Shown here piece by piece: positions 363 to 56,810 of a stretch of DNA of 64,000 bases. Source of the stretch: Chrysomallon squamiferum (lineage: Eukaryota; Animalia; Mollusca). The notes under the pieces were generated by a model. It was given only the letters and a program-made list of their open reading frames with translations. It had not been told where the DNA came from and made no database searches. Numbering within the stretch: the stretch's first letter is position 1; each line of letters opens with the position of its first letter. The translations under genes were made by a program, and so were the position numbers. The stretch is taken from positions 5,642,001 to 5,706,000 of the forward strand of contig CM022675.1 in NCBI GenBank assembly GCA_012295275.1, in the 5' to 3' direction.

Positions 363-403
<41 letters not shown>

Positions 404-451
404 TTTAGTAGTAGTAGTAGTATTGTTGTTGTTGTTGTTGTTGTTTTGTCC

Positions 452-695: not shown

Positions 696-740
<45 letters not shown>
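452..740 (+). repeat. Dispersed ~250-330 bp repeat ending in an (AAT)n tail; other copies at ~34650-35010, ~35835-36130 and, inverted, ~41500-41858
   Basis: Shared core ttttcccgttctgttttatatgtatcaatgactgttacctaca..gattcagacgtgcaccatccg..tttcgttccagtaattgcaat. Confidence 0.8.
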
Positions 741-746
<6 letters not shown>

Positions 747-2860: not shown

Positions 2861-3189
2861 TTCCAGTAACATTCTTTTTGAGTAAACTACAAAACTCCAG
2901 ACTATTTGTTAGGCCAGAAAATGTATGTGACAGTGGTGATATTTTTCGTTTGAATTTTTTCAAACATTTATATTAAACTTTATAGTCATAAGAATCCACT
3001 TCGTCAGTATATGTGTGCTATAAGTCTGATATTAAAACTTGTATTTTCATTCTTCGAGGATGGATTTTATCGTACAATCACCTATTTTGAACTGTTAAAG
3101 GTAAGTACATGTAATTATATTTAATCAAACATTGTAAAACTTATGTGTACAAATTAAAGCTACGTTCTGTAAAATATTTAAGTGTCTAT

Positions 3190-4643: not shown

Positions 4644-5654
4644 ACGATGAAAGAATCGGAATATTGGAAAATGTGAAAACTTTTTTTTTTAACAAGAATT
4701 TTATTTTTATGGACATAAGGAAGGAAAAAGAATATATAATTTTGAAGGTAGATGTATAACTGGCTTCGTCTCGATAAAAACTGAATGACTAAAACTTCTC
4801 AGAGGTGATTGGCTTGTTTCAACATTATTTATTACTGTTGTTTCCTTTTTCTGGTTTTTTTTCCAGTACAAATGCAGTGCTGACGTTGGTTTGACAATAT
4901 TTGTAGAAGAAAATGCAGATCGCTATTATAAAAAAGGGAGATAATTAAAGTACTGTATGTCTCACAGAGTTATCTTCACAAATGATATCTTATTTGTCCA
5001 AACTGCTAGGAAGTTTGTCAAGTAAGATTTTATTATCATTGTTGTTGTTTGTATTATTAATATTTCATTGTTGTTGTTGTTATTATCATTTTTATTATTA
5101 TTATTATATACATTCTTAAAAACTATAAACACATGGGTATGTATATGAATAGTCAGATCAACACATTTTGGTAGTATAGTAAGACAGGAAACATACACAC
5201 ACACACAAACATCTTTATTTAAAATTCTTTATGATAAACATTCATATATAGTGTAATTATGCTCTGAAAAACAGTTGAAATGGAACTCTCCAGGTTTCCT
5301 TGAATCTGGAGTTACCTGCCCTGCTGACTCAGACGTCCCTCCACAGAAAGAGTTATCTCTGAGAGCCCCTTGTTGTGCATTTTCATTTTCACCAAATGTT
5401 TATGCAATAATATTTTACCTCGTTTTTGTATTTTTCGTACGTACATCATCTTGATGTATAGCTAGCTTTTAAAGCGTTTTACTTGTTTTTAATTTAATTT
5501 TATTTGAGTAGACATGTTTATTTTTAGACCCAGTATTTTAAAGATGTTATATTAGTTATCATGTCAGAGAAAAACAGATCTCTAGAGTTAATTATTCTAA
5601 TTTCTGGTGCTTATGTCTTCTGTGCATTGCTCTCAGTATTTCTTTGTTTCTGTT

Positions 5655-5734
5655 TCTGTGTGTGTGTGTGTGTGTGTATGTCTGTGCATGTGTGTGTGTG
5701 TGTGTGAGTGTGTGTGTGAGAGAGAGAGAGAGAG

Positions 5735-5812
<78 letters not shown>
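5655..5812. repeat. Compound microsatellite (TG)n(AG)n(AT)n(AG)n
   Basis: Directly visible. Confidence 0.97.
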
Positions 5813-5815
<3 letters not shown>

Positions 5816-6068
5816 ACAATGAGGTGTTTACTTTAACTGACTTTACTGCAATACACTCTTTAGACATCAGTTTTGATAAAACTGTATTTGATTACTTACT
5901 GTTTTACTGTCTTCACATTAAACATTTTAAATATTGTAGATGCCTTATTCGGCATTTATTTTCAATAACATCATGAATACACGTTTATCTGTTAATGTGC
6001 ACTGATTTACATTGTGCTGTTTTGATGATTTTGTTTTTAATACATAAATACATTACGTGTGTGTGTGT

Positions 6069-6127
<59 letters not shown>

Positions 6128-9100
6128 GGCGTGTGTCTATGTCTTAATCCAATAAGTGCCAACAGTACGCAACCATATCGTATATTTCTGCAGTGTTATC
6201 ATTATTTATATGGTAAAAAATAAAATGATTGACTTTGCAGTTTTTCTTAAAGTGCTTTATGTATAAGTTCTACTTACGATTATAAACTGTTTTTGTACGC
6301 TAGATTTTGCATAGAAAGAATGTGACAGGGACAGAAAAACTGCAAATAATGAAGGATGGGAAAAAGAAAGAATGTTACTAATTTACTAAAATACTGTAGT
6401 ATAAACGTTTTTCATCACGTGTATTATTTTCACATCATATCAATATGTTTGTTAGAAAATTCTATTTTATATGTATGTTCATTTTGAACTTATGAATTAC
6501 TGGTGCTTTTTATAAATGTTTTTGAGCAATAGTAATGGGGGATATTTGCTTTTTATTCTCAAAATCTATATTTGAACTTACGAAATTGTTTTAATATCGT
6601 ACACTGTATTAATGAAAATATGAATAGAAGAGGAACTTTTATCAATATTTTATAGTATTTTTAAAACATCAAGCATTCTTTTGATGTTGGTTATCTTTCC
6701 AGTTTTTTTAAAGATGAATGGCTTTTTAAAGTCTTCGGTTTTTGCACATTTTTGTTCATTTAATTTTTTGTTTGTTTGTAAAGGAGTCAATGTGTTTCAT
6801 TTCTTTCTCTTTTTGTTTAAATTTTATTTTTATGTCTACCTGTTTACCTATATTAGACTGACAGGTAGATTAATGTAAGTCACAGTAAATACAGAGTTCC
6901 TTTGTTTATGAAGAATTGTTCCTCCGTTTCATTTTTCCATTATACATTTTATTATATTGGTCTGGATAGATTAATGTAAAGTGAACATAATTCCAGAGTT
7001 TCTTTTGTCTTCAAATGAAACATGGATTTACAAATATCTCACTTAATTTTTTTATTACATGTTTTAACATTTTGTGTATGTTTATGAGAAAGACAGTTGT
7101 GAAGGCATGTGTGTGTTTATTTTTATTTGTGTTCCGTATATTGTTACAAGTGTATATTTATATTTGTTTTTGTTGTCGTTATTCTGTGAGTATATGGCTG
7201 AAATGTTTTTTGAAATTGAAAATTTGACATGTTCCACATGAAGCTTGTTTTTTGTTTTTTTTTTTCTCGACATTACTCAGAGAACTACAGTAGCATTTTA
7301 GATCTTGTATTCTAATTTATTCAAGAATAGCGTGTTCAGTGTAGTTATCCTTTGTATTGAATAAATTATATATACCATGTAACACCAGTTTGTTTTCTGA
7401 GTCCTTTAACTGATAGCTGTTAAGTAGATGGAATTTTGTTGTTTTTCTTTTTCTTTTTTATCTTTTGATGTTATTTCTTAATTTCTGATTTATAAAATTA
7501 TTTTAATTGTTCGTTTCTCTTTTTTCTTGTACTTATTTATTTAATTTCTCATTATTGTTGTTGTTCTTATTTATTTATTGTTTTTATTTTATTGTTTTTA
7601 TACTACTTATAAAAACCTACTCTGTTTACTTTGTTTTGTGCATTTAGAGCAAGATGCATGCTGATGATCAACAATCGATCTGATTTCATAACTCAACTAT
7701 GGAAATCGCTAGGTTGAAAAGAAAAAAAATGTTTACATAATCAGAAATCTACATACTGATTCCTTCAGAATGACAGAGCAAAATGAAAACAACAGTTAAA
7801 TGTTTACAAACAGTAGTTATTTGAGAACATGAATATGCCGAACCTAAATATGTTATGATAAAGTTCAAGAGAAAAGTTTCATTGTAGCAGAAAGCATCTT
7901 CTGCAAGAGACTTCCAGTTTGGTTTGTTTTATATAAATTATTAGCTGCTGCTTGGAAAATCAATTTTTGAAAATGTTATTCCATTTCTTTAATAATGTAT
8001 AAATAAAGACTTAAGTAAAAATATGCTAATAAGAAAAAAAAATACATGAAGACTCAGATTAAAATATTTATTGTATTTAATAGTTAATAGTGTATAGAAA
8101 AATGATAATAGTAATAATGAAATCTACGTAATTTGTACATTTCTATATATATATAATCTTTCTTTCTTTTTCTCTATGTGTATCTGTTTATCTATAACGC
8201 AATCCCCCTAAGAGGCATCTAATTAATATGTGTGTGTGTGTGTGTGTGTTTGTGTGTGTCAATTACTTTACAGTTGTCCACACTATTTCATATAATTGTG
8301 CAGCTAATATTACATGGTAGCCATAAATGAAAAGAAATTCAATTTAAAAAAACCCACAAAAAATCAAAAAAAAAAGAAGAAAAGAAACACAACAAAACAA
8401 TAACACCAAACATTAATTTAACAATAAAATAAAATAAATAAACAAATAATAATAATCATCATCAACATCATAAAAGCAAAAATAGTTTCTCAATCAAAAA
8501 CACTAAGCTGCGATTCCTTAAATGAAACGATTATAAATGCTATAATAAAAACTTAAATCCTAGTTTATTTTTCATTTGATGACAAACTCATAAGAAATAG
8601 ACTTTGTAATATTTTCTCTTTCATGATTGTGTAAATCAGTTTTTATTTATTTACTTCTGTGACTGCTAACCTATTAATTCTTATATATTACGTGAATTAA
8701 ATTTTATAATAAAATTAACACATTTACTTTCTTGATACATTTGAAATAATTACTTAAATCAACAAATGTAAATAGTAACTAAATGAATACTAAATTATTG
8801 TTAGAAATAAAAGGATAGAAAACTAATTAAATAAATAAGCAAATTACTTTAGGAATAATCTACAAAATTACACCAAGGTAATAATAATAATAATGACAAA
8901 CAGTTCTTGAAAATAAATAAACAAAATATATGCATCAAAATCAATAAGATACACAAGTATTATAATGGAAAAATGCTGTTTAATTTAAAAAATTATATTT
9001 TAAGATCGGTATGTGATAAAACATCAGGAATAATGCAAATTTAATATGTCATCAGCTGAAGTATTTTAACAGTGAAAACAACAACTGAACATAAAAATAA

Positions 9101-9623
9101 AAAATACGAGAAAATATTCAAGGAAAATGTAGTGGAAGCATATTTGTACAAATATATTATAAATCAACAAAGTAGTAGTAGTGATAACAACAACAGCAAA
9201 AGATAAAAAAGCTTTTTTAAACAATACAACAAAAAGAAAAAACAAGTCTAAGTAATTAATAAAAGCTAATACCAAATCCTGTTCAAAAAAAAAAAAAAAA
9301 AAAAAAAAACAGTAAAAAAATTAAAAATGATATTAATGAAAATAATAAATTGGGTTAGGGCTAGAAAGTTTTTGCTTGTTTTCTTCTTAAAAAAATAAGT
9401 GTCTTCAATGTCAAAGTGTACTTTTAGTAAACACATTCGAGTTTCAACTGAAATATTTTAACAAAGTCAAAACAATTATTATTATACATAAAAACAATAT
9501 ATATTCAAGAGGAAAATATACTGGAATCATATCTGGATTAGATACATCATAAATCAACAATATAGTGTTAGTAGTAGTAGTAATAACAAAGAGAGAGATA
9601 TGTTTTAAACATATCCATAAAAC

Positions 9624-9684
<61 letters not shown>

Positions 9685-12602
9685 CATAATAATAATAATG
9701 AAAAACATAAATAAAATGGCGTCATATATGTATCAAGAATTTTGTTTTCACTTTTGAAGTGCACTTTCAGTAAAGACACTGAGTAAACAAAAAATTTAAC
9801 AAAAAATAAGAAATTAGATAAAAACCAGTCAGTTAAAAAATGTACATATTTTTAAGACATAACTATCTGAAAACATTACATAAACAATAAAGCCAGATGA
9901 AACAGTTACAAATATTTCACAAGTCAATGTCTATCAGAATGAAGTACATAATTAAGATAAACTTCATACCTCAGAAATTACAAACATAAATTAGTTTCCT
10001 TCACAACTACAGTTATATTCATTATTATCCACACCTGTTTCAAACAAAACTATTTGAACATTTATTTTGGAATATTAATTTTCATTTGATTAAATAATCT
10101 GTCTCAAAATGGGAAGAAGAATTCAGTGAAATGTTATTCGAGACGGCAAACTGAGTCAGTTGTCACTCATAAAATACAAAAGTAGCAACAGGAATATCAC
10201 TTCTGTTTTAAGTATTCTCAGTTTTGTTAATGTATATAATATAAATTATCTAACACCTGCAATTAGTAATCGTCTCATACTAACAATCATCATTATTTAT
10301 CTGAACAAAACTAAGAACAAAATATTATTATAATAATCTTGCCCCTTCTATCAGGGATATCCCCGATATCCTGTTATCACTGAAAAGCCAGAAATATCTT
10401 GTTTGTTATTTTGTAGAAGTTGTTATCATATTAACAGTGATATCATGATCAACGAAAGTAAATAATTTATAAAGATAAACAAAATGTCTTGTTGCCAAGA
10501 TACAGATGATGGTGTGGCATATCCAGTATGTTGATTGGCGTATGAACTCTGTGCTAAGCTTTCTCGGTATTCTAAAGACAGCACCCCCTTTCACTAAACA
10601 CATGCTTAAATAAGTAATTTTGTATTTCACTTTCATTTGCTAAATGATTTATAGCAGTTTACAGTTAATAGTAAAGTAGTTTTTTGTTTGTTTGTTGTTG
10701 TTTTTTTTTTCAGTTCAGAAGAAATGTCTTTTAGATGTATTTGCTTTGTATCCCTGTCCTATTGATAATCATCATTAATTATAGATGATTCTTTATATAA
10801 AGATCATTCTTTATGTAAACCAAATAAAGAAAAACACACTTTTAAAATTATAATATTCTACCATATCCCAATTAGGATATCCCCAACATACTTCTGTTTT
10901 GAATCCTCATTTACAAGAACGTTTTTCATTATAGACATGGGACAAAGCCCAAGTGAATAGTTTGTTCTCAGATTCTGACGAAGGTAGTGATGAATATGGA
11001 GTTTCAATTCTTGCTGATTCAGATAACCAGAATGGGACTGACAAGATCAGTGATGATTACATTGATAGTGCTAGAAAAACACAATCGATTTATTAGAATC
11101 TCTAAAGGAATGAACTGTTTTTGTTGTCAAGGATCAGAGAATTGGAGAAACTAGAAAAACGCATTCAAAATAAATGATGGAAAATCCCATTATGAGATTT
11201 TTGACCAAAATACCATTTATCATTTAAGATTGTGTATGGCTTCATTAACATATTATGAAAAGAATTCGATTATTTTGGGAAGTTCCTTTCTGATCAACAA
11301 AGGAGACTCCACAGTGGTGTAAAAAAACAACAACCAAAAAACAACACTCAACCCATCCCCTAAAAAAAGCCCTGCATCTTGAGTATAAATGTAAGAAAAT
11401 CATCGTACTGTTCATAAACTGATTTTAAATCCAGACTCCATTTTTGAGAAGAAATATTCTGATACTGGTCAAGAATTGGTGACCTTGCTTAATTTAAGAC
11501 AGCTCCAACCAAAGAAATAATTATGTCACTAGGACTGGACAGGAAACACCAACACTATTTGTATAAACACATCTAGAAGCAATGAATACAGCCCATCAAA
11601 AACCAGCAGACTGTGACGAATCGAGTAATAGTGATGAAAGAACAGACTTCTGTGAAGAGATATGGTAGTACAACGAAAAAAAAAGAATTTGAATGATAAA
11701 ACACTCAAGTTATGACACCATTTTCATATTTCTTAACTTAGAAACATAAAATTGAAATTCTGAATTTCTTTATTATTAATTATTAAAAAATCACATTTTG
11801 AGAATTTCAAAGAATTTTTATAATAATAATTTTTAAAAATAATAATACAAATTAAATAAATCAATATAAAAATCACATTTATTTGTTGTTGTTGTTTTTA
11901 AATATCAAAACCTATTTCAGAGAATATTATTTTTCATAGAATTATTTCTGTATTGCTTTATGATGAAATGTTTTCAGGAAAGAAAAATAACTGAATTTAA
12001 AAACATATATATAGTATTATTTTTTTTTTCAAAGAAATCTTTTTTCTTAAACTTTATTTGAGTCCAGCTAAATCTAAATTAATTTGTTGAAATTATTTTT
12101 AAAATATAATTGTCAATATCACTGAAAACATTCAAAATAAAAATGTATATAATTTTCTGATTTTACCAATGTACATTGTTTTATTTTTATAATGAAATGT
12201 GGATTCCAAAATGAATAGCATTACAAATAAAGAAGCAACTATTTAGCTTTCACACTTTGTTCACATATCATTTGTGTGAAATTTTGGTGACTTTTAACAA
12301 TAAACAAGTGATTGCTAACGACACACATCGCAAATGACACAACTTCTTTAAAGTCAATTTTCTCCAAGATGACTATACTCTCAAAGATGGATTCGGAACA
12401 CATTTTTGTCAATTTTCGAGATGTCTTAGAAATTTTGGTCTTATTTTACAGATGATGGTCTCAACAACATTTCTATCTAAAATCATTTTTCACATTTTGG
12501 AACGTCACCAATTTTCCTGTCACCAGTCAAATTACATTTGTCTCCATGCTGTAGTAAATATTATTAGTATTAGTTTTATTTATACAAAATACGTTTTATC
12601 AT

Positions 12603-15600
12603 TTAATTTTCCTTAGCACTATGACTCAATAAATAGGAAACAATCTTCTGTTTTTCCCTAAGTCTACCACCAACCATCTTGAGAGGTGTTTGTCCCATAG
12701 CATTAGGAGTGTTTACATCAACACCTCTTTCCACAAGGGCCTTCACAACTTCTGTTAATCCACGTATAGCTGCTACATGTAAGGCAGAATTTGTATCATT
12801 GTCTATTACATTAGGATCAGCTCCATGTTCCAGTAAATACAAAGCTGTTTTCCCCATTCTTTTATTAAGAGCTGTAAAAAGAGGAGTTACATCTTCATTG
12901 TTTTTGATATTTACATCAACACCTCTTTCCATAAGTGCCCGCACAACTGCTGTTAATCCATGTTTAGCTGCTATATGTAAGGCAGAATTTGTATCATTGT
13001 CTATGACATTAGGATCAGCTCCATGTTCCAGTAAATACAAAGCTGTTTTGTACTGTTTGCTGTTCATAACTATAAGAAGAGGAGTTTTACCTTTATTGTT
13101 TTTAATATTTACATCAACACTTTTATTAATCAAGGCTCTGACAATTTCTGTATTTCCCTCCTTAGCTGCTATGTGTAAAACAGAATTGTTATGTCTGTCT
13201 TTTAAATGAGGATCAGCTCCATGTTCCAGTAAATACACAACTACGTTGTTCTGTTTAGAGTGAACAGCTGTAAAAAGAGGAGTTTTACCTTCACTGTTTT
13301 TAATATTCATATCAACACCGTTTTTTATCAGTGTCGTCACAATTTCTATATTTCCTTCTTTAACTGCTGTGTGTAAAACAGAATTATTAGATCTGTCTTT
13401 TAAATTAGGGTCAGCTCCATGTTGCAGCAAATAAACAACAACTTCATTGTGTCTGTAGTTTACAGCTGTATAAAGAGGAGTTTCAAGTTCTTTGTTTACA
13501 ATATTTACTTTAGCACCTTTTTCAATCAGAGCTTTCAGAATTTCCATATTTCGCTGTTTAACTGCTATGTGTAAAGGCGAATTGCTATCAGTGTCTGTTA
13601 AATTAGGATCAGCTCCATGCTCCAGTAAGTACAAAACAACATTGCAATATATATCTTTTAAAGGTGGACAATAGCTAATATAATTTATAGTTGTAAGGAG
13701 AGGCGTTTTACCTTCTTTGTTTCTAATATTTACTTTAGCACAGTTTTCAATCAAAGTTGTCACACTTTCTATATTTCTATTTTTAATTGCCATGTGTAAA
13801 CAAGAATTCTTACATCTGTCTGTTAAATTAGGATCAGCTCCATGTTCCAGCAAATACAAAACTACTTTATTTTTGTAAGAGTTTACAGCGCTAAATAGAG
13901 CAGTTTCACCTTCATTGTTTCTAATGTTTACATCAACACCTTTTTCAATTAGTGATGTCACTATTTCTATTTTTCCACGTTTAGCTGCTAAGTGTAAAAC
14001 AGAATTGTTATTACTGTCTATTAAAATAGGTTCAGCTCCCTGTGCCAGTAAATACAAAATTATTTCGCAATGTTTATCATCAAAGCATGTACCATCTGGA
14101 TATCTGTTTATAGCTGTATAAAGAGGGGTTTCACCTCTATTGTTCTTAATATTGACATCAACACCTTTTTCTATGAGTGCTTTAAAAATGTGTATTTTTT
14201 TTTGTTTAGGTGCTATGTGTAAAACAGAATTGTTATCATTGTCTGTTATTTTAGGATCAGCTCCTTGTTCCAGTAAGTAGAAAAATACTGCACAACGTCC
14301 ATCATTAAAAGAATCATACCAGAGGTATTCATGATTTATAGCTGCAAGCAGAGCTGTTTCACCGCTATTGTTTTTGATATTTAGATCAACACCTTTTTCG
14401 ATAAGAGCTGTCACAATCTTTACATTTCCCAGATTAGAAGCTATGTGTAAAACAGAATTGTTTTTACTGTCTGTTAAATTAGGATCAGCTCTATGTTCCA
14501 GTAAGTACAAAACTACTTTGATTTGATTTGCTCTAAAAAGAGCAGTTTCACCTTTATTGTTTCTAATGTTTACATCAACACCTTTTTCTATTAGTGCTAT
14601 CACAACTTCAATATTTCCATGTTTAGCTGCGAAGTGTAAAGCAGAATTGTTATCACTGTCTGTTAAAAAAGGATCAGCTCCATGTTCCAGCAAAGAGAAA
14701 ACTACTGCACAATGTTCATAATTACGAGAATCATGACAGAGGTATTGATAATTTGTTGCTGTAAGAAGAGGAGTTTCACCATCATTGTTTCTAATGTTTA
14801 CATCAGCACCTTTTTCTATCAGCGCTGTCACAATTTCTATTTTTCCATATTTAGCTGCTAGATGTAAAACAGAACTGTTACAAGTGTCTGTTAAATTAGG
14901 ATCAGCTCCATGTTCCAGTAAATACAAAAATACTTTGTCCTGTCCGTAGTTGGCAGCTGTAAGAAGAGGAGTTTGACCGTCATTGTTTTTAATATTGACA
15001 TCAGCACCTTTCTCGATCAGTGCTTTCACAGTTTCTATTTTTCCATACTTAGCTGCTAGATGTAAAACAGAACTGTTATCACTGTCTGTTAACATAGGAT
15101 CAGCTCCTTGTTCCAACAAACACAAAATTATAGTCCAGGGATCATGATCAAAGTCCTCAACGTATTCATCATATTCATCAAAGCATATACCCATAAGTTC
15201 AAGAAGAGGAGTTTTACCTGTATTGCTTTTAATATTAACGTCAGCACCTTTTTCAATCAGTGCTGTCACTATCTCTAATTCTCCATACTTAGCTGCTATG
15301 TGTAAAGCAGACTTGTTATCACTGTCTGTTAAATTAGGATCACCTCCATGTTCCAGTACACAGAAAACAACATGGATGTGTTTGAACTCCACAGCTGTAA
15401 AAAGAGGAGTTTTACCTTCTCTGTTTCTAATATTTATATCAACACCTTTTTCTATCAGCGCTGTCACAATTTCTATTTCTCCTTGTTCAGCTGTTATGTG
15501 TAAAGGCAAATTCTTATCAATGTCTGTTATATTTGGATCAGCTCCATGGTCCAGTAGATAGAAAACAACATGGTTGTGTTTGTACTCCACAGCTGTAAAA

Positions 15601-18600
15601 AGAGGAGTTTTACCTTCACTGTTTTTAATATTCAGATCAGAAACGTTTTCTGCCAATTTTGTCACAATTTCTATATTTCCTACTTTAGCTGCAATGTGTA
15701 AAACAGATTTGTTATCACCATCTGTTATATTAGGATCAGCTCCATGTTCCAGTAAATATAAAACAACTTTCCATTCTTTATCATTTGCAGATGGATGTTT
15801 TTGATAACAATTCAGAGATAGATTTCGTTCATAAGAAGTGAGGACTGCAAAAAGAGGAGTTTTACTTTCGTTGTTAATAATGTTCACCTTAGCACCATAT
15901 TCAAACAGTACTGTCACAGCATCCAGATATCCAAGTTCTGCTGCTAGGTTTAAAGCTGAATTCTTATTCTGATCTGTAATGTTAACATCAGCTCCATTTT
16001 CTAGCAAAATCAAAGCTAATTCTTTTCTATGTTCTTTGATAATGACAGCATCGTGAAGTGGAGTTTTTCCTTTACAGTTCACTGCATTAACATCAGCATT
16101 TCTTTTCACCAGTGATTTCAACAAATGTAAGTAACCAAGCCGAGCTGACGTGTGGAGAGGTGAATCAGAATCGAAGCATTCTAATCTAGTTTTCTTTTCA
16201 AACCAATCAGTCAATGACGTATCAACTGATACCTTAGCATTAGGATCAGCTCCTTTATCAAGCAGACACTGAACAACATCTGCACTGTTAAACATTACTG
16301 CTACTTTCAGTACTTGACTTTTCTTCCAGTTGTTCTCATGTGTATCACTATGTCTCTCATAAATGAGAAAATCCACTGTGTCAGCAGAACCGCACATTGC
16401 TGCTGCTAAAAGAACTTTATCTCTGTTCTCATCATTTAAACAATCAGGTTTCAGTTTTACTATTTCTTTTATAACTCCTGAATTCATCTGACCAGCCGCA
16501 ATGATGGCAATGTTTTCAATTTTGTTTATTATTTCAATGGTAACCAGTTTCTTAAAAAGAGAGCTTGTATCAACAGATTCATCAGTGAGTGGTTTTACTT
16601 GTGTATGGAACCTAACCAATAATAGTTTTACAATGTTTTCCTTTAATTTACTGTTGCCTTCCTCATTGTTTATAAAGTCAGCCAACAAACAGGCAATGTT
16701 CATGTTACGCGAAAAAATTGAAAGTTGTAACAACAGGGAACACTGATTCAAAGCCACGTTTTTACACCTTGAACGTTTTTTAATTATGGTAACATTTTTA
16801 TATTCTAACAATTTTTTGAGTATGGTAACATTGTCTGTTTTTGAACATGCAGCTGTTCTGATTGTATCGAATGTTGGAACAACACCTGATTGTAACAACA
16901 TTTTCACAACATCTTCATCACCAAACAAACAAGAAATATTCAAAAGTTCTTTTTTCTGATTCTTGGAATCCATTTTACACAGATGTGTTGTCAAACACCT
17001 CGACATTGTTCTCAGGCCATTCACAACACACTCACTTGCAACAGATGATGAATACATCCCTTTTTCTTTAACTGTCAAATACCGGTAGGATATGGTCCAA
17101 CATTTTGAATGACTGTAATCGAAATGTACAATTTCCTCAAATATATTAAGGAAACCTTCACATACCTGAAATGCAAAATGATGCCTTACTCGATGCAGAT
17201 TCTGATGCAGTATTTGGGACAATTTACCATAGAAGTGTTTTTTCTCAATGAGATATTTTAGAAATTCTTCATCTTTCAGTGATGGATGCGAAATAATCTC
17301 TCTGGCACTGCTTGATGCCAGCAAGTCAGTAAATCTACGAGCAAGAACTTCAAAGCAGTCAGGTCTGACAGTCATTGTAATGTGACTTTTATTAGACACT
17401 CCAGGTGTCACAACATATTCTAGCAACATGGAGACAGGACACACTTCTAGCAACTCTTCTACTTTCTTTGGAAATTCTGATGAAAACATCAGAAACAAAG
17501 AGTCAAACACTGACTGGTGAATAAATGTGTATCTATTGTTGTAACAATTCAAATAGGTGCCACACATTACATCAGCTGTTGTCTTTATGTGTGCAAGATT
17601 AGTGTGTTTTAAACTCAGACAGGCACCCTCCAGCACTCTTACTAATTCCATTATGTCAGCGTCATTTTCAAATGGGTTCAACAAATCAATACTGAGACTG
17701 CCTTGCTGAAACATGATCAGCAGTAGAACCAGATAATTGATCTGTGAGGATTGATCATTTTTCATATTTCCTAATTGTTCTCTGAGATATTCTACAGGTT
17801 TCTTAAAAAACTCAGCTCCTCTTTTTTGTGCATCACTTGAATTAACATAATAAACACATACCTGAGGAAATCCTAACTCTGTACATGCTCTGTAAATGAC
17901 CTTCCGTTTGTCATGTTCCTCCATTGTAACGTCATTTTGTTTGAGATATTTGTTTAGAATTTCTTCCTTTTCATCCCAACTGAGACAAAATTCATAACTC
18001 TGTAGATCAAGAAGATGAGTCTCATTAAACAGATCAAATTCCTTCAAACTGGTTTTACTTTCTGCAAATATTTGATTACGTAAGGTAATAATACATTTCA
18101 CAGAACCATCCTGAACAAGACTCCATACCGTTGTAAATTTTGGTTGCCATGACAGCCTAAAATCTGAAATAAGATTAGTTTTACCAAATATGTCATCGAT
18201 GAGAATAATACATTTTTTATCTTTAGATACAGGGATATCATTGAATTCAGTGTGATGAGTCAGCAAGTAAGATTCTCTTTTCTCTTCAGTTTCTATCTGC
18301 CTCATAATTCTCAAAGCTAGAGTTGTCTTTCCTGAACCAGGACAGCCTGTTACAATCACAACACCATTCTTCTTCAAAAGTTCAACACCTGTTTCTTCTG
18401 CTCTTGTTTCAACATAGAGATTCCAGTCAACTGAGTTTATCCTTGATGTGGTAGACACTGTATCAGAACAAGTTAAAAAATATTAAAGTCGACTATAAAC
18501 TGTTTTATAATTGTTTGTACTATATAAAGATTAAGTTTATTATTTCTTAGTAAGAATTAGTTTATAATATTTATTCATTAATGTTAAGATTAAAAACAAC

Positions 18601-20632
18601 TAGATGATTATCATATTATTAATGAACATGTTTGAAAACAATGTAAGGAAAAAAATCACCTTTCATATTTGATGCTCTTCCATCACTCTTTACTGAAATA
18701 ATATAAAAATAAAAACAATAATTTTCTGTTGTTTACAAGTAAACAAGAATTATTAACAGCAACCTGTACAATTACACTTCAGCTGAGTCATAACAGGTCA
18801 AATGTGTAACATTATTTTTATATATTTCTGATTGATTTTACTATAATCTGTACTGCTACTGTTGTTGTTTCTTGATAATATTATTAATTTATTTATTGTT
18901 ATAATTGATTTTCTCATTGTTGTTATTGTTGTTGTTGTTGTTTTATATATACGTTGCGGAGCATTTCAATATTTATTGATGATCTTTTAAAATCACTGAA
19001 AAATGCACACCATTTAGAAATATGTGTGCATGTGTTTGTGTGTGTGTGTGTATGTGTGTTGTGTGTGTATGTGTTATTCTTATCACAGAGTGTGGTAGAA
19101 AATTACTAATGATTATCTATCAATCTAGCAAAAAAAAATTAAACTTTCAGTTTTTAACTTACTAGTGTTCACAATTTGATTTCCTATCACAACATTTTTG
19201 TTATGAGATAGGGCATGGTAATTGTGAACTGAGCTGATATTTACATTTTGTTCTGTCACTGTCTGTGTTCTTGTGTGATCTGTAAAATAGTAAATGAACT
19301 GACTTAAATGCACTGCTTAAAAACAATTTCTAAAAAAAAAATTGTTTATCTATATATAGAACAGTACAGCATACAGTATTAATTAAATGTATTATTTTTA
19401 AATATAACTATATAAAAAAAATCTGTTTAATATTATTTGTTAACTGATTATTTTTGTAAGTACTAAGAAGTAAGTATTACTTCACAGTATTAAAATAAAC
19501 AAAAGTAAATTCAAAAATAATTACAACAGTCATGATTGTAATCAAAATAGTAATTGGTGTGTGTTCTGCTTTAAAGTTTTCATAGGTCAAAGAAACAGGA
19601 TATAAAAGTTTTTGAATTGTTAATGTTTTATCAATATAAATCAGTAAAGTGTGTATGTTCAATAGTGTTATAACCATAAGATTGTCAGCACACACTTTAA
19701 AGTGAAAGTAAAAACAACAGAAATAAACAATAACTTTGTCTTCTGTCAGAGTAGAACTGTTAGAGATTAAACAATATACTGAAAAACTGCACTGTTACAT
19801 TTATAAAAATTAATTTTGTTTGGTTTTACCTGCCCATCAAATTAGTAAACTACATTGTAGAAAACTACTGTGCTATTAATTACCTTTACAAGATGTGACT
19901 GTTGACACTTGTGGCTGTGCAGTATCCATGCCTGAAGTAGTTGCTGCTGTGATGTTGTCCTGTTTTTCGTCATCTGAATCAGAAGTAGTTGCAGCTGTGA
20001 TGTCCTCATCTTTTTCATCATCTGAGACAGAAGTAGATGCAGCTGTGGTGTTGTCTGAATCCTTTTTTTCATCATCCATATTGGCTGAAATGTAAAATAT
20101 CAGTTTACATTACTGATAGATTGCTAATATTACATTCAGTTCTGTGTTTAAGTTGTTATATTGTGACATTGGATTCTGTTAAATAAACACACACATACAC
20201 ACACGCTCATGTGTGTATATCACGGGGTTCACACCTTTAAACACCTTATATAGTTTTTTTTATGGCTCAGTCTATGGCCACCTAACAAAGAATATAAAAG
20301 CTAAATTGACAGCAATCTATATAAATCAATAAGTCTATTTATCCATCAGAGAAATAAACACAACACCAGTTAATTATGAAATACAGGTGACTTGATAATA
20401 ATGCATTATACAGTCATAAAACATACGTTTAAGTAATTTTGATTAATGATAAGACAAAGGTCATACGAAAAACCAAGAAAAAATAAGAATCTGCACGAAG
20501 GACAGATTAAAACCTTAAAGTTTTATAATAAATGTTATTGACACAGGTTAATTGCACATTACACCGTATCAAATTAAGAATAGACAATTGCTTACCATAC
20601 TTGTCTGTAAAGGCAATGTCATTCAAAAACAT
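12603..20632 (-). CDS. NLR-like STAND NTPase (nSTAND3-like) with ankyrin repeats, copy 1, intact. Exons (minus strand): 20632-20596, 20084-19884, 19279-19163, 18692-18660, 18457-12603; 2080 aa
   Basis: Open 5.85-kb terminal exon with Walker A GCPGSGKT, Walker B IILIDDIFG, the ITLR motif and GFPQVC, followed by a helical region and a long ankyrin array (TPL..A / HGADPN / LH.AA..G / KG.DVN). The four upstream exons have canonical CAG/GT borders, are all joined in phase 1 (37+201+117+33+5855 = 6243 nt) and are conserved at equivalent positions in copy 2. The ORF-track start at 18458 is the G of the acceptor AG, not a start codon. Confidence 0.88.
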
Positions 20633-20888
20633 TGGTTTCCCCTCTGACCGAATTCTCGTCTTAACCGTTTTCTTCGCTATCGCTTACTTCGCTTACTTTA
20701 TTTACCAAACGCCAGTCTTTTTTTATAACAAATCCACAGATTTGAAAAATTAGCAGAAATAACAAAGGGCCTTTGGATTGTAATTGCAATTAAGGATGCG
20801 CAATTTCAATTCCATCGCTTAAAAAAAAAAGGAGTGGATCTGTGATTGAACTAACAAATTTGATTACGCAATCTGAATTCCATCAAAG

Positions 20889-21088
20889 NNNNNNNNNNNN
20901 NNNNNNNNNNNNNNNNNNNNNNNNNNNNNNNNNNNNNNNNNNNNNNNNNNNNNNNNNNNNNNNNNNNNNNNNNNNNNNNNNNNNNNNNNNNNNNNNNNNN
21001 NNNNNNNNNNNNNNNNNNNNNNNNNNNNNNNNNNNNNNNNNNNNNNNNNNNNNNNNNNNNNNNNNNNNNNNNNNNNNNNNNNNNNNNN
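20889..21088. other. Assembly gap (200 N)
   Basis: Run of exactly 200 n, which suggests an unsized scaffold join. Confidence 0.99.
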
Positions 21089-21452: not shown

Positions 21453-27786
<6,334 letters not shown>

Positions 27787-36079: not shown

Positions 36080-36113
<34 letters not shown>

Positions 36114-36531: not shown

Positions 36532-36562
<31 letters not shown>

Positions 36563-42380: not shown

Positions 42381-42430
<50 letters not shown>

Positions 42431-48424: not shown

Positions 48425-51400
48425 CTAAAGAGGTGTTTTAATCACAGAATTACCAATATTTACGTTAGCACCTTTGTCAATCAGTGCTTTCACAATATTT
48501 TCAGTTTCATGTTTAGCTGCTATGTGTAAAACAGAATTGTTATCAGTGTCTTTTATATTAGGATCAGCTCCATGCTCCAGTAAATACAAAACTACTTTGT
48601 CCTGTTGGTGATTAACAGCGGCGAGAAGAGGAGTTTCACCTGCATTATTTTTAATATTTACATCAACACCTTTTTCAATCAGTGCTGTCACAAGTTTTCT
48701 ATGTCCAAATTTAGCTGCTAGGTGTAAAACAGAATTATTATATCTATCCGTTAAATTAGGATCAGCTCCATGTGCTAGCAAATTAAAAATTATTTTTTTG
48801 TCATCATCAGTAAAGTGCAGACAGTAAGATACATCAACGTATCTGGCTGTAAGTGCAAGAAGAGGAGTTTCACCACTACTGTTTTTAGTATTCACATCAG
48901 CACCTTTTTCAATCATAGCTCTCACTATTTGTGCATTTCCATAGTTAGGTGCTGTGTTTAAAAAATAAATTCTATCACTGTCTGTTAAATCAGGATCAGC
49001 TCCATGTACGTTCGTGTGATCATCAGCATGGTAGCGATAATCTTCAAGTTTATCAGGGAAATTAGCTGTAAGTGTGAGAAGAGGTGTATCACCTTCGTTG
49101 TTTTTAATATTTACGTCAGCACCTTTTTCAATCAGTGCTGTGAAAATTTCTACATTTCCATATTTAGCTGCTATATGCAAAGGAGAATTGTTATCATTGT
49201 CTGTTAAATTAGGATCAGCTCCATGCTCCAGCAAATACAAAACTATATTGCTGTGATAATAATTAAGGTAATTATAAGGTTGACACATAGTTGTAAGTAT
49301 AGGAGTTTGACCTTTATTGTTTTTAATATTTACATCAAACCCTTTTTCAGTCAGCGCCCTCAAAATTTTTATTCGTAACCCCTTAGCTGCCATGTGTAAA
49401 ACAGAATTGTTATCCCTGTCTGTTAATTTAGGATCAGCTCCATGTTCAAGTAAACACAAAACTACTGCATATTCCCCATATTTCACAGCTATATGAAGAG
49501 GAGTTTTACCTTCGTTGCTTTTTTTATTTACATCAACACCTTTTCCAATTAGTGCTGTCACAATTTCTGTTTTTCCACATTGAGCTGCTAGGTGCAAAAG
49601 TAAATTGATATGGTTCTCTGTTATATTAAGGTCAGCTCCATGTTCCAGTAAATATACAAATACTTTTGAAACGTTAACATTAGAGAATCGATTATGCTGA
49701 GGTCCATTACAATATATAGCAGTAAAAACAGGATTTTCTCCTTTACTATTCAGAATATTTACATCAAAGGCTTTTTCAATCAGTGCGGTCACTATTTTTA
49801 TATGTCCATGTTTAGCAGCTAGGTGTAAAACAGAATTTTTATCCAGGTCTGTTATACTAGAATCAGCTCCATGTTCCAGCAAATACAAAAATACATTGCA
49901 ATATTGATCAGGAAACATTTCGGATTTATCACAATCTACAGCTGCAAGGAGAGGCGTCTCACCTCTGCTATTTAAAATATTTACGTCAAAACCTTTCTCA
50001 ATCAGAGCTGTCACAATTTCTATATTTGCATCTTTAGCTGCTATGTGTAAAAGAGAATTGTTATCACTGTCTGTTAAATTAGGATCAGCTCCATTTTCCA
50101 GTAAATACGAAACTACTTTGTCCTGTTGGTGATTAACAGCTGCTAGAAGAGGAGATTCACCTTCATTGTTTCTAATATTTACATCAACACCTTTTTCAAC
50201 CACTGTTGTCACAATTTCAATTTCTCCACATACCGCTGCCATAAATAAAACAGAAATGTTTCTATTATCTGTTAAATTAGGATCCGCACCATGTTTTAGC
50301 AAATACAAAGCTGCTCTGCAATGTTCATTACTACAGTCAGGATGATTGTGCCATATATGAAAACATAAAGCTGTAAGAAGAGGAGTTTTACCTTTGTTGT
50401 TTTTAATATTTACGTCAACACCTTTTTCAGTCAGTGCTGTCATAATTTGAATATTTCCATGTTCAGCTGCCAAGTGTAAAACAGAATTCTTATTACTGTC
50501 TGTTAAATTTGGATCAGCTCCATGTTCCAATAAATAAAAAAATAGTTTGCTCTGTTTCTGGTTCACAGCTATAAGAAGAGGAGTTTCATCAAAATTGTTT
50601 TTAGTATTTACATCAGCACCTTCTTCAATCAGTGCTGTCACAATTTCAATATTTTCATCTAAAGAAAAATTAGTATCACTTCGAAATAGTTGTAAATATA
50701 AAAAAAATCCATAGCTGACGAAAGAGTCCACAGCTGTAAGAAGAGGAGTTTCACGTTTATTGTTTTTAATATTTACATCGGCACCTTTTCTAATCATTGC
50801 TGTAACAATTTCTATTCTTCTGTGTTCAGCTGCCAGGTGTAAAACAGAATTCTTATCCCTGTCTGTTAAATTAGGATCAGCTCCATGTTCCAGCAAATAC
50901 AAAATTACACTCAAGTGATCATGATTAAGCTTCTGATTAAGCCTCTGATGTTCCTTACAGTATGTAGCTGTAAGAGCAAGAAGAGGTGTTTCACCTTTAC
51001 AGTTTTTTACATTTACATCAACACCTTTTTCTATCAGTGCTGTCACAATTTCTATATTTCCTAGTTTAGCTGCCAGATGTAAAACAGAATTGTTATCACT
51101 GTCTGTTAAATTAGGATCAGCCCCATTTTCAAGTAAATAAAAAGCTACTTTGTTCTGTTTGTAGTTCACAGCTGTAAAAAGAGGAGTTTTACTTTTATTG
51201 GTTTTAATATTTACATCTACACCTTTTTCTATCAGTGCTATCACAATTTCTAAATTTCCACATTTACTTGCTTTGTGCAAACTAGAATTGTTATCACTGT
51301 CTGTTAAAATAGGATCAGCCCCATGTTCCAGTAAATAAAGAGCTACTTTGTTCTGTTTGTAGTTCACAGCTGTAAAAAGAGGAGTTTTACCTTTATTGTT

Positions 51401-54400
51401 TTTAATATTTACATCTACACCTTTTTCTATCAGTGCTGTCACAATTACTAAATTTCCACATTTACTTGCATTGTGCAAAACAGAATTGTTATCAGTGTCT
51501 ATTAAATTAGGATCAGCTCCATGTTCCAGCAAATACAAAACTACTCTGCAGTGAACTATATACGGGTATACAGCTGTAATTGTAAGGAGAGGAGTTTCAC
51601 CTCTACAGTTTTTAATATTTACATCTGCACCTTTTTCAATCAAAGCTGTCACAATTTCTATATTTCCGTTTTTAGCTGCTGTGTGTAAAACATAATTATT
51701 ATCAGTGTCTCTTAAATTAGCATCAGCTCCATTTTTAAGCAGATAGAAACTTACATTGTCTTCGTTATGTTTCACAGCTGTAAGAAGAGCAGTTTCACCT
51801 GCATTGTCTTTAATATTTACATCAACACCTTTTTCTGTCAGTGCTGTAAAAATGTCTATTCTTCCATGTTTAGCTGCTAGATGTAAAATATAATTGTCAC
51901 TACCATCTGATATATTTGGATCAGCTCCATGTTTCAGTAAATAAAAAATTACTTTCCAGTGTTCATCACTGGCGTAACTCAGAGCTGTAAAAAGAGGAGT
52001 TTTACTTTCATTATTCGTACTGTTCACATTAGCACCCTTTTCAATCAATGTTGTTACAGCATCCACATATCCAAGTTCAGCTGCTAGGTGTAAAGCTGAA
52101 TTCTTATTTTGATCTGTAATGTTAGTATTAGCTCCATTTTCTAGTAAAAACGATGCTAATTCTTTTCTGTGCTTCCTTACAACTACAGCTTCATGAAGAG
52201 AACTTTTCCCCTTCCTGTTTACTGCATTAATATCAGCATTTCGTTTTACCAGTGATTTTATCAAATCTAAGTTTTCACGGAGAACTGAAATGTGGAGAGG
52301 TGAGTCAGAAGGCAATAAATGCACACTGGTCTCTCTACGGAGAAGTGAAATGTCGAGAGGTGAGTGAGAAGGCAATAACCACCGAATCACATCATTAGTA
52401 CAGTTTTCATTAACCCTGTTAAACCAATCAATCAACGTCCTGTCAACAGCTACAAGAGCATTAGGATCAGCTCCTTTATCAAGTAAACACTCAACAACAT
52501 CTGCACTGTTAAACATCACTGCTACTTTCAATACTTTACTTTTATTCCAGGTGTTATCATCTTTATCATTTCGTCTCTTGTCAATGAGAAAATTCACTGT
52601 GTCAACAGAACCCCATATTGCTGCTGCTAAAAGAACTTTATCTCTGTTCTCATCATTTAAACAATCAGGTTTCAGTTTTACTATTTCTTTTATAACACCT
52701 GAATTCCTCTGACCAGCGGCAATGATGGCAATGTTTTCAATTTTGTTTAATATTTCAATAGTAACCAGATTCTTAAAAAGACGAGTCGTATCTATATCTT
52801 TATTGATCGGTGAGTTTTGGATATATCTATCACTTAAAGTTTCATGTACAGATGTATGGAACCTAAGCAATAACAGTTTCACAGCTTTTCCCTTGATTTT
52901 ACTTTTGTCCTTCTCATTATTAATAATGTTAACCAACAAACAGGCAATGTTCATGTTACCTGAATAAATTGAAAGTTTTAACAAATGAGAATACTGGTTT
53001 AAATTCACCTTTTCATACTGTAAAACTTCTTTGAATATGGTAACATTGTCTGTTTTGCAACAGGCAGCTACTCTAAATGTATCAGATGTTGGAATAACAC
53101 CTGAATGTAGCAACATGTTCACAACATCTTCATCTCCAAATAAACAAGAAACATCCAAAAGTTCTCTTTTCTGGTCTGTGAACTTCATTTTACACAGTTC
53201 TGATGTCAAATACCTCGACAGTGTTCTTAGTCCATTCACAACACACTCACTTGCAACAGATGATGAATACATCTGTTTTTGTTTAACTGTCAAATACAGG
53301 CAGGATAATGTCCAACAGTCTGAATGACCGTCATGGAAATGTGCAATATTCTCATATATATCAATGAAATTTTCGCCTACCTGAAATGCAAAATAATAAC
53401 TTGTTCGATGCAGTTTCGTTTCCAGTATTTCGGACAATTTACCATAGAAGTGTTTTTTCTCAATGAGATATTTTAGAAACTCTTCATCTTTCAGTGATGG
53501 ATGTGAAGTAATTTCTCTGGCATTGTATGATGCCAGCAAATCACTAAATCTGCGAGCAAGAACATCAAAGCAGTCACGTCTGACAGTCATTGTAATGTGA
53601 CTTTTATTAGACACACCAGGTGTCACAACATATTCTAACAACATGGAGACAGGACACACTTCTAGCAACTCTGCTGCTCTCTTTGGAAACTCTGATGAAA
53701 ATATTAGAAACAACGAGTCAAATACTGACTGGTGAATAAAAAAGTATCTTTTGTCATAACAACTCAAATAGGTACCACACATCACATCAGCTGCTTTCTT
53801 TATATCTGCAAAATCAGTGTTTTTTAGACTTGGACAGACACGCTCTAGCAATTTTACTAATTTCATTATTTCACTGTCACTGTCAATTTCAAATGGGTTC
53901 TACAAGTTAATATCGAGAGTGCCTTGCTGAAACATGATCAGCAGTAGAACGAGATAATTGATCTGTAAGGATTGATCAGTTTTCATATTTCCCAATTGTT
54001 CTCTCAGATATTCTACAGGTTTCTTAAAAAACTCAACTCCTCTTTTTCGTGCATCACTTGAATTAACATAATACACACATACCTGAGGAAACCCTAGCTC
54101 TGTACATGATTCCTCAATGACAGTTTCTTTGTCCTCTTCGTGCACTGTAACATCTTTTTGTTTGAGATATCTGTTTAGAATTTCTTCCTTTTCATCATAA
54201 CTGAGACAAAATTCATAACTCTGTAGATCAAGGAGATGATTCTCATTAAATAGATCAAATTCGTTCAAATTGGTTTCACTTTCTGCAAATATTTGATTTC
54301 GTAAGGTAATAATACATTTCACAGAACCATCCTGAACAAGACTCCAGACCGTTGGAAATTTTGGTTGCCATGACAGCCTAAAATCTGAAATAAGGTTAGT

Positions 54401-56810
54401 TTTACCAAATATATCATCGATGAGAATAATACATTTTTTATCTTTAGATACAGGGATATCATTGAATTCAGTGTGGTGAGTCAGCAAGTAAGGTTCTCTT
54501 TTCTCTTCTTTTTCTATTTGCCTCATAATGCTCAAAGCTAGAGTTGTCTTTCCTGAACCTGGACAGCCTATTACAATCAGAACACCTTTCTTCTTCAAAA
54601 TTGCAACACCTATTTCTTCTGCTCTTGTTTCAACATAGAGATTCCAATCAACTGAGTTTATCCTTGATGTGGTAGACACTGCATCACAACAAGTTAGAAA
54701 ATATTAAAATCTACTATAAACTGTTTTATAATTGTTTGTACTATATAAAATTAACTTTATTTTTTCTTAGTAAGAATTAGTTTATAATATTTATTCATCA
54801 ATGTTAAGATTAGAAACAACCAGATGATTATCTTGTTATTAAAGGACATATTTCAAAACAATGTAAGGACTAGAACAGGAAGAAAAAAAAAATCACCTTT
54901 CATATTTGATGCTCTTCCATCACTCTTTACTGAAATAATATAAAAATAAAAACAATAACTTTCTGTTGTTTACAAGTAAACAAGAATTATAAACAGCAAT
55001 CTGTACAATTACACTTCAGCTGAGTCTTAAAAGAGTAAATGTGTAACATTATTTTTATATCTTTCTGATTGATTTTACTATAATCAGTACTGCTACTGTT
55101 GTTGTTTCTTGATAATATTATTAATTTATTTATTGTTTTAATTGATTTTGTCATTGTTGATATTATTGTTGTTGTTGTTGTATATATACTTTGAGGAGCA
55201 TTTCAATATTTATTGATGATCTATTAAAATCATTGAAACATGGACATTATTTAGAAATATGTGTGCATGTGTGTGTGTGTGTGTGTGTATGTGTTGTTCT
55301 TATCACAGTCTCGTAGAAAAATACTAAAGATTATCTATACGTCTTGCAAAAAAAAAAAAAACCTTCAGTTTTTAACTTACTAGTGTTCACAATTTGATTT
55401 CCTATCACAACATTTTTGTTATGAGATAGGGCCTGGTAATTTTGAACTGAGCTGATATTTACATTTTGTTCTGTCATTGTCTGTGTTCTTGTGGTATCTG
55501 TAAAATGGTAAATGAACTGACTTAAATGCACTGCTTAAAAACAATTTCTAAAAATGTTTTTTTTTTTTTTTTTTTTGTCTATATATAGAACAGTACAGCA
55601 TACAGTATTTATTAAATGTATTATTTTTAAATATAACTATATAAAAAAAAAATCTGTTTAATATTGTTTGTTAACTGATTATTTTTGTAAGTACTAAGAA
55701 GTAAGTATTACTTTACAGTATTAAAATAAACAAAAGTAAATTCAAAAATAATTACAACAGTCATGATTGTAATCAAAATAGTAATTGGTGTGTGTTTTGC
55801 TTTAAAGTTTTCATAGGTCAAAGAAACAGGATATAAAGGTTTTTGAATTGTTAATTTTTTAGCAATATAAATCAGAAAAGTGTGTATGTTCAATAGTGTT
55901 ATAACCATAAAATTGTCAGCACACACTTTAAAGTGAAAGTAAAAACAACAGAAATAAACAATAACTGCTTGAGATTAAACAATATACTGAAAAACTGCAC
56001 TGTTACATTTATAAAAATTAAATTTGTTTGGTTTTACCTGCCCATCAAATTAGTAAACTACATTGTAGAAAACTACTGTGCTATTAATTACCTTTACAAG
56101 ATGTGATTGTTGACACTTGTGGCTGTGCAGTATCCATGCCTGAAGTAGTTGCTGCTGTGGTGTTGTCCTGTTTTTCATCATCTGAATCAGAAGTAGATGT
56201 AGCTGTGGTGTTGTCTGAATCCTTTTTTTCATCATCCATATTGGCTGATGTGTAAAATATCAGTTTACATACTGATAGATTGCTAATATTACATTCAATT
56301 CTGTGTTTAAGTTGTTATATTGTGACATTGGATTCTGTTAAATAAACACACACATACACACGCTCATGTGTATATGTCAAGGGGTTCACACCTTTAAACA
56401 CCTTATATTGTTTTTTTATGGCTCAGTCTAGGGAAACAAGGTGCTTTAATGGCCACCTAACAAGGAATATAAACTCTAAATTGACAGCAATCTATATAAA
56501 TCAATAAGTCTATTTATCCATCAGAGAAATAAACACAACACCAGTTAATTATGAAATGCAGGTGAGTTGATAATAATGCATTATACAGTGATAAAACACA
56601 CGTTTAAGTAATTTTGATTAATGATACGAGAAAGGTCATACGGGGAATGAAGACAAAATAAGAATCTGCATGGAGGCAGATTAAACAATTACAATGTTAG
56701 GAATAATAAATGTTACTGACACAGGTTAATTGCACATTACAACCTATCAAAATAAGAATAGACAATTGCTTACCATACTCATCTGTAAAGGCAATGTCAT
56801 TGAAAAACAT
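48425..56810 (-). pseudogene. NLR-like STAND NTPase-ankyrin gene, copy 2, with an in-frame premature stop. Exons: 56810-56774, 56244-56092, 55497-55381, 54929-54897, 54678-48425
   Basis: Same exon structure and motifs as copy 1. TAG at 53902-53900 replaces TTG (Leu) of copy 1. The frame continues unchanged (11 codons, then ATG at 53866) into an 1813-aa ankyrin ORF, which ends at KTPL* in the middle of a repeat. Confidence 0.8.

Follow-up and report, generated by a model that had tools for sequence, protein, structure and literature searches.

Length-variable inter-helix loops on the ankyrin array of an nSTAND3 NTPase gene in Chrysomallon squamiferum

Background

In STAND proteins, the NTPase is kept closed by the repeat array, and once a ligand has bound, the protein oligomerizes and signals. 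The gene described here encodes an NTPase of this kind followed by 34 ankyrin repeats, in which the length of one turn varies strongly in every second repeat. It lies in a 64,000-nucleotide stretch of the genome of the mollusc Chrysomallon squamiferum (GenBank assembly GCA_012295275.1, contig CM022675.1, positions 5,642,001 to 5,706,000), hereafter 'the window', to which all coordinates refer. The gene is termed copy 1, and a tandem paralog in the same window is termed copy 2. Copy 1 belongs with the STAND-ankyrin (NLR-like) receptors, as a germline variant diversified in its loops.

The fungal STAND-ankyrin (STAND-ANK) receptors share an N-terminal segment, a STAND NTPase, and C-terminal repeats with variable inner helices and hairpins that change in number (PMC4986451; the literature is cited here from excerpts). 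Positive selection on the inner helices and hairpins has been reported for these proteins in the same source. They differ from the window protein in that its NTPase is of the nSTAND3 rather than the NACHT type and its host is an animal. Podospora ANK repeats measure 33-36 aa (PMC13449251), whereas the loops of the window gene vary in length and reach 23 aa. The original prediction, made from the window sequence, also invoked fungal NWD/HET receptors with high-identity repeats. In repeat identity the comparison does not hold, since HNWD-type high internal conservation (HIC) repeats are at least 85% identical and the two-repeat units here average 61% (maximum 85%, 28 units). By analogy, the window protein would nevertheless work most like the fungal STAND-ANK receptors.

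Other known proteins share parts of this design. The phage sensor Avs5 has an nSTAND3 NTPase (10.1101/2025.07.08.663546), and Avs5, other AVAST sensors and human SAMD9 all join an nSTAND3 or related STAND core to a C-terminal helical-repeat sensor. Avs5 differs in using TPR, Sel1 or PPR sensors and an enzymatic Sir2 effector; the window protein has ankyrins, and no enzymatic effector was found in it. Designed ankyrin repeat proteins (DARPins) and the engineered LoopDARPins have a constant ankyrin frame, variable beta-turn and helix residues, and an added randomized loop (PMC4384111). In the window protein, by comparison, the loops occupy the turn between helix 1 and helix 2 and recur many times along one natural array. 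The LoopDARPin loop, from general knowledge of these designs, replaces the central beta-turn. Antibody complementarity-determining regions (CDRs) and lamprey variable lymphocyte receptors likewise combine a conserved frame with variable loops or modules, but these are somatically assembled, while the window loops are germline and common to several samples.

Molluscs have been reported to carry few classical NLRs. Aplysia has four NACHT proteins, one of them with LRR (PMC9334734), and molluscs are reported to lack APAF-1 (PMC11463336). Ankyrin proteins are among the expanded immunity-related families of Gigantopelta aegis, with no link to STAND drawn in the excerpts of that report (PMC7895826), and excerpts of PMC8195603 do not mention nSTAND3. 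No description of loop-bearing nSTAND3-ankyrin arrays of molluscs was found in the literature searched, which comprised main texts and few subscription journals.

One variable turn in a regular ankyrin array

The ankyrin array has a period of 198 bp. Exact anchors occur at 12814, 13012, 13210 and 13606 and then, after a step of 225 bp, at 13831. All of these agree with the original prediction; a further anchor that it gave as matching, at 13408, is a variant with one mismatch. When the array is split at these helix-1 anchors, the 34 repeats alternate between an A type and a TPL-type, here called B. Each of the 16 A-type repeats in copy 1 has a length of 33 aa, whereas B repeats range from 30 to 51 aa and differ in length only between helix 1 and helix 2.

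Copies 1 and 2 together supply 28 regular two-repeat units (two irregular units of copy 2 were excluded). Of their loops, 14 have the standard 5 aa, 13 have 8-23 aa, and one has 2 aa. Length change, present in 14 of the 28 units, is confined to the helix 1-helix 2 turn of B, as originally proposed, and all six long inserts that had been picked out in copy 1 are where they were said to be (Table 1). Insertions of at least 5 aa are found at 11 of 62 junctions at the inter-helix site in the window copies, and at 0 of 62 on the hairpin side. A single-sequence AlphaFold model of the array (mean predicted local distance difference test score, pLDDT, of 67) matches ankyrin solenoids and renders the six long loops as coil between helices, with their ends extending helix 2.

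The rest of the unit is not the fixed scaffold that had been envisaged. Besides their 61% mean identity in protein, the units are 76% identical in DNA, and variable scaffold columns are found at the helix-1 ends and the hairpin.

A candidate binding edge and the evidence for selection

Ankyrin repeats stack in register, and the inter-helix turns are therefore expected from the fold to line one edge of the array, beside the helix-1 ends that border the groove. On balance, we think it probable that the protein is an intracellular NLR-like immune sensor whose loops and adjoining helix-1 ends form a diversifying binding edge. STAND biology and the pattern of the loops make the sensing role and loop binding likely.

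In such a sensor, the ankyrin array would hold the NTPase shut until ligand binding. Oligomerization would follow, and the signal would pass through the short N-terminal segment, possibly by an amyloid-type mechanism. Duplication and exchange of 198-bp units would spread and reorder a small set of loop-bearing units, and in-frame indels together with selected point changes would remodel the middle of each loop. The His-Cys/Trp end of the loop would be kept as the first turn of the extended helix 2, perhaps as a helix cap or a metal ligand.

Diversifying selection appears to act in the long loops, on evidence that is real but limited. In each of the four pairs of long loops that match in length, the proportion of nonsynonymous differences (pN) exceeds that of synonymous differences (pS), while in the scaffolds of the same pairs pN is lower than pS. 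Pooled over loops, pN is 0.45 and pS 0.20, a ratio of 2.2; neutral simulation gives a median of 0.87 (P = 0.001), and codon-shuffled loop pairs give 0.67/0.69, a ratio of 0.98. In a site model of 61 scaffold codons from the 28 scaffolds, M2a improves on M1a (likelihood ratio test, 16.8), with a nonsynonymous to synonymous rate ratio (omega) of about 3 at A9, B7 and B16, two of which are helix-1 ends. Of the variable binding loops that the original prediction had ascribed to an intracellular immune receptor, the excess of amino-acid change is supported by the ratio of 2.2, and binding by the loops is putative.

Several observations weigh against this proposal. The inter-helix turn is one of two generic insertion sites in ankyrin repeats, where insertions cluster at positions 6-7 and 17-20, affect 9% of repeats and seldom exceed 5 residues (10.1101/858845), and the position of the loops by itself is therefore not evidence of function. 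The loop test consists of four ungapped pairs, three of them only 48-58% identical. For the loop pair that aligns best, DNA divergence does not exceed that of its scaffold (0.80 versus 0.79), and the 9:0 count of nonsynonymous to synonymous differences between loops 3 and 4 is not significant alone. Pooled short loops have a pS of 0.64, above their pN of 0.42. Exchange of units inflates site-model tests, and resolution of the unit tree is poor. An a-priori paratope partition, built on what we take to be the DARPin-type binding positions, has an omega of 0.51 versus 0.44 for the rest, with tree lengths of 21.4 versus 10.1; both rates are raised there, and omega hence does not exceed 1. The single-sequence model is weak at the loops (pLDDT < 50), the N-terminus has no match to a Pfam effector domain or to RHIM, and the contig joints considered below are a filtered, non-independent subset.

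Some of these points suit a rival explanation that we regard as unlikely but serious, in which the classical groove does the binding and the loops are tolerated insertions, drifting because their length differences shield them from homogenization of the units. Besides the generic nature of the site, drift would fit the doubling of both synonymous and nonsynonymous rates in the paratope partition, the presence of as many long loops in copy 2, which has a stop, as in copy 1, and the absence of anything longer than a 5-aa loop from 8 of the 15 units in copy 1. Against it, loop pS (0.20) does not rise above scaffold pS (0.29-0.49), and pN is about double. The A-type repeats and the hairpins are free of insertions. 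What is special at the inter-helix turn is the frequency and length of insertions, not the position. Insertions of at least 5 aa at this turn number 84 of 696 in 158 nSTAND3 homologs, although two proteins account for 24 of the 84, and 111 of 3062 (3.6%) in other ankyrins, by a position-specific scoring matrix scan that misses some loops and that drew its comparison set from the best 120 other long ankyrin proteins. Loop composition, too, is far from the expectation given by the bases.

Composition and kinship of the loops

Relative to the scaffold, Y/W/F (17% versus 4%), Cys (8.6% versus 0.9%) and His (8.6% versus 3.6%) are enriched in the long loops, much as first described. The claimed richness in Asp did not hold up (9% versus 6%, p = 0.16). 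Y/W/F/C together make up 26% of the long loops versus 15% expected from base composition (0 of 2000 shuffles), and none of the 193 loop codons is a stop. Aromatic residues are also frequent in the short 5-aa loops (14%).

The inserts had been called unrelated, yet 14 of the 78 pairings of loops score z > 3 versus shuffles (mean z 2.05), and a His-Cys/Trp end is shared: the penultimate residue is Cys or Trp in 10 of 13 long loops, with His preceding it in 7 of 13.

These features allow a second rival, quite unlikely in our estimate, in which the chief role of the loops is structural or regulatory. They might bind metal through Cys and His, sense redox state or metal, tune the curvature of the array, contribute to autoinhibition, or contact host proteins that the receptor guards. 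The high Cys and His contents, the occurrence of two Cys in 5 of 12 long loops, and the conserved loop end are all consistent with such roles, as are the loops of abalone relatives (see below), which terminate in Cys-x-x-His and are preceded by His-rich helix ends. The spacing of Cys varies among the window loops, however, some of which have one Cys or none, and recognition would account for the nonsynonymous excess in the loop middle better than a fixed metal site does. The two roles are compatible, in that a loop pinned by metal could also bind.

An nSTAND3 core

The reading frame begins with a match to the nSTAND3 family (PF20720) of 93 bits, versus a cut-off of 27. Across 54 sequences, the Walker A Gly and Lys, the Walker B Asp, the GxP motif, and a Phe and a His of the winged helix are near-invariant. 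A nucleotide-binding domain followed by a helical domain with the GxP motif and a winged helix is the arrangement of the nSTAND3 clade of STAND NTPases, to which the protein belongs. An alignment-based AlphaFold2 (AF2) model of the N-terminal 752 aa (Table 1) matches SAMD9, the archaeal STAND protein 6mfv, NRC1, Avs5 and Avs4 in Foldseek, with expectation values (E) from 1.6e-5 to 6.5e-4. Ankyrins dominated the matches when a profile was searched against PDB sequences.

In Pfam searches, NACHT (24 bits versus 26.7) and NB-ARC fell below their cut-offs, and the only repeats found were ankyrins, with no LRR. The protein is therefore not an NLR in the strict sense. Of the tripartite plan of NLR-like receptors in the broad sense, it has the C-terminal superstructure-forming repeats, in the form of 34 ankyrin repeats, and a possible N-terminal signalling motif (see below). 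The STAND/NLR-like frame of the original prediction is supported by the nSTAND3 match, the STAND fold matches, the large family of paralogs, the amino-acid excess in the loops and the abalone parallel.

The Asn/Val/Ile-rich segment encoded by predicted exon 3 has, by eye, what we take to be the look of a RHIM-type amyloid signalling motif, an unproven resemblance. A RHIM-like motif occurs in 5 of 75 homolog N-termini, a weak and marginal count beside the shuffle mean of 1.5 (maximum 6), and a second RHIM-like pattern, also weak, occurs in 8 of 75 (shuffle mean 3.0, maximum 10). Many nSTAND3 homologs have short Asn/Gly/Val/Ile/Thr-rich stretches just before the NTPase that by eye look like amyloid signalling motifs. 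Other homologs carry HEPN-like (PF18738) or caspase-like domains in place of the amyloid-like stretch.

Gastropod relatives and a parallel in abalone

The closest proteins come from Gigantopelta aegis, then from Haliotis, and then from bivalves. The unannotated nSTAND3-ankyrin proteins of G. aegis (for example, XP_041375010.1) and Haliotis are 37-42% identical to the window protein over the N-terminal 750 aa, and trees of the NTPase region group the window copies in the Gigantopelta clade. Gigantopelta members have 0-4 sporadic inter-helix insertions per protein and no regular 66-aa unit.

A regular arrangement is found in two Haliotis rufescens proteins, XP_048243699.1 and XP_048244137.1. Their two-repeat unit measures 75 aa, and every second repeat bears a Cys/His loop at the turn that varies in the window copies. 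The abalone units are 77-79% identical in scaffold. Across the 17 units of XP_048243699.1, four loop positions reach 1.8-2.6 bits versus a scaffold mean of 0.52. Similar but shorter loops occur in three more proteins of this abalone clade, which is the only abalone clade with loops in every second repeat.

The loop-bearing abalone clade groups with loopless abalone proteins, and a single clade joining it to the window copies is rejected (p-AU 1e-5). Since the loop-bearing groups are separate on the NTPase-region trees, regular loop arrays either arose twice or were lost many times. The abalone relatives thus appear to have evolved the same loop layout separately. These are quick trees, the first of which dropped 8 of 80 rows for short matches and the second of which used 28 chosen rows; the loop-bearing group was defined by trait, but after the first tree was seen. 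The likeness to antibody CDRs suggested by the original prediction is a loose one and goes too far, because the window loops are inherited, related to one another and finished by a conserved end, and recur at equal length in other samples.

A broader proposal, speculative and in our view rather improbable, is that gastropods at least twice evolved a germline STAND repertoire in which a hypervariable loop, pinned by Cys and His and possibly held by zinc, sits on every second ankyrin repeat. Together the loops would form a natural paratope that unit exchange reshuffles among dozens of paralogs and that is coupled to amyloid-type signalling, and the whole would amount to an NLR-equivalent anticipatory immunity missed by NACHT and LRR surveys.

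If the loops are selected, the large nSTAND3-ankyrin family would be a candidate for the missing molluscan intracellular sensors, and loop display would extend the known ways by which repeat receptors diversify. Protein engineers would gain a site for grafting on the ankyrin frame that nature has used repeatedly. A direct test is feasible in farmed abalone, where genes of the orthologous type are annotated only as uncharacterized or PP6-ankyrin-like. For the loop-array gene of H. rufescens, LOC124125868, the annotation lists isoforms of 198-219 aa, 1865 aa and 2562-2688 aa; the short isoforms, which contain only the N-terminus, may be regulators or annotation noise.

Family size and variation between samples

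Parts of the gene are present in nine public runs from three studies. Each of four DNA runs yields between 1037 and 3135 contigs, most of them 85-99% alike. A single variant site can have as many as 34 contigs, and these counts indicate a large family. Summed contig depth would suggest tens of copies, but depth is no copy number and was not used as a count. Searches with the ankyrin half, also against Atlas, returned generic ankyrins only (best 32-54% identity) and no same-species paralogs.

In two runs from RNA libraries, the long exon is covered far more than the introns, by which members of the family appear to be transcribed. Contigs in these runs extend over four of the six loops with 6-25 differences.

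Paralogs differ most at the B loop. Among the best-supported contig joints of longer tables (five non-RNA and two RNA runs), which are not independent, 18 of 32 joints in the array have both ends at the B loop, five lie at the matching A turn and nine elsewhere. The B loop makes up 26% of the array (binomial p = 3e-4). Loose ends likewise fall at the B loop in 7 of 12 listed places in the array. Listed single-base differences (nonsynonymous in 14 of 18 in the array and 23 of 35 in the N-terminal half) form a biased subset, are not significant, and were not used.

The loops are inherited, because versions of loops 1, 2, 5 and 6 with equal length recur in other runs and one contig from another sample crosses loop 6 with 0 differences over 352 nt. 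No sign of somatic variation was seen, and loops recur across samples, though assembled contigs drop rare variants. That the loop pattern is an assembly artefact or a product of somatic rearrangement is very improbable: no contig spans the whole gene in seven runs and the best run covers only 53% of its words, but the 5.9-kb frame is open with every indel in frame, loops recur in other samples as just described, and the layout is present in annotated abalone proteins too.

Gene model, tandem copy and neighbouring sequences

The coding region rests on one open frame of 1959 codons (12603-18482, minus strand), set in AT-rich DNA of animal type with abundant microsatellites. Four small upstream exons with GT-AG borders, the same in copy 2, can be joined to it computationally in frame, giving five predicted exons and a 2080-aa product (Table 1). 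Among the RNA joints listed, none is a splice joint at a predicted intron, and a cluster of loose ends lies at 18439, near the predicted acceptor. The acidic segment of exon 2 has no Pfam match.

Table 1. Predicted features of the receptor gene and its tandem paralog
Feature	Position	Strand	Description
Predicted coding exon 1	20596..20632	-	ATG, 37 nt; GT donor, in frame, kept in copy 2
Predicted exon 2	19884..20084	-	Acidic, Thr/Ser/Asp-rich, low-complexity, 48-bp repeat; AG/GT borders, in frame
Predicted exon 3	19163..19279	-	39 codons, Asn/Val/Ile-rich; AG/GT borders, kept in copy 2
Predicted exon 4	18660..18692	-	33-nt linker; AG/GT borders, in frame
Exon 5	12603..18457	-	5855 nt; NTPase, helical/winged-helix region and entire ankyrin array; stop 12603-12605
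nSTAND3 NTPase domain (PF20720)	17940..18416	-	Walker A and Walker B intact; E 1.5e-26
Helical domain, winged helix, helical/degenerate ankyrin arm	16200..17939	-	AF2 pLDDT 89, predicted template modelling score (pTM) 0.87; Foldseek
34 ankyrin repeats	12606..16163	-	15 complete two-repeat units, base length 66 aa
Long inter-helix loop 1	15768..15836	-	23 aa, +18; coil, pLDDT < 50
Long loop 2	15132..15188	-	19 aa, +14; low-confidence coil in model
Long loop 3	14706..14750	-	15 aa, +10; low-confidence coil; clear homolog of loop 4 (z 9.9)
Long loop 4	14289..14333	-	15 aa, +10; 9 nonsynonymous, 0 synonymous differences versus loop 3
Long loop 5	14064..14105	-	14 aa, +9; low-confidence coil in model
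Long loop 6	13641..13682	-	14 aa, +9; low-confidence coil in model
Tandem paralog, copy 2	48425..56810	-	Same five exons; loop set and order differ; two irregular units

Copies 1 and 2 sit in a tandem duplication of about 36 kb. Their DNA is 86% identical between 16200-20881 and 52421-57029 and 72% identical inside the array. Omega between their N-terminal halves is 0.59 overall and 0.38-0.94 by region, as under purifying selection. Copy 2 has an in-frame TAG at 53900-53902 (codon 373), within the helical domain, and the next 5.5 kb are still open. It is probably a pseudogene or null allele; the TAG may reflect recent loss of the gene, a null allele or an assembly error.

The duplicated non-coding flank (311-11134 versus 34639-47223), up to 95% identical over 2.3 kb, delimits the tandem block of about 36 kb and contains decayed transposon-like frames near 37100-37800 and 39000-40100. 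An isolated third copy of the acidic exon 2 lies upstream of copy 2 at 58202-58551 (minus strand) and may be an alternative exon or the remnant of another paralog. An assembly gap of 200 bases (20889-21088) directly precedes predicted exon 1, leaving the promoter region of copy 1 incomplete.

Between the two receptor copies is a multi-exon SRCR-ZP gene (22001-27786, plus strand) encoding a DMBT1-like scavenger receptor. Its domains include SRCR (PF00530) at 22001-22198 (E 2e-10) and ZP-C at 26874-27149 (E 1e-5), and a likely transmembrane exon lies near 27600-27780. Within this gene, a minisatellite of about 14 copies of a 61-bp unit extends from 24128 to 25020.

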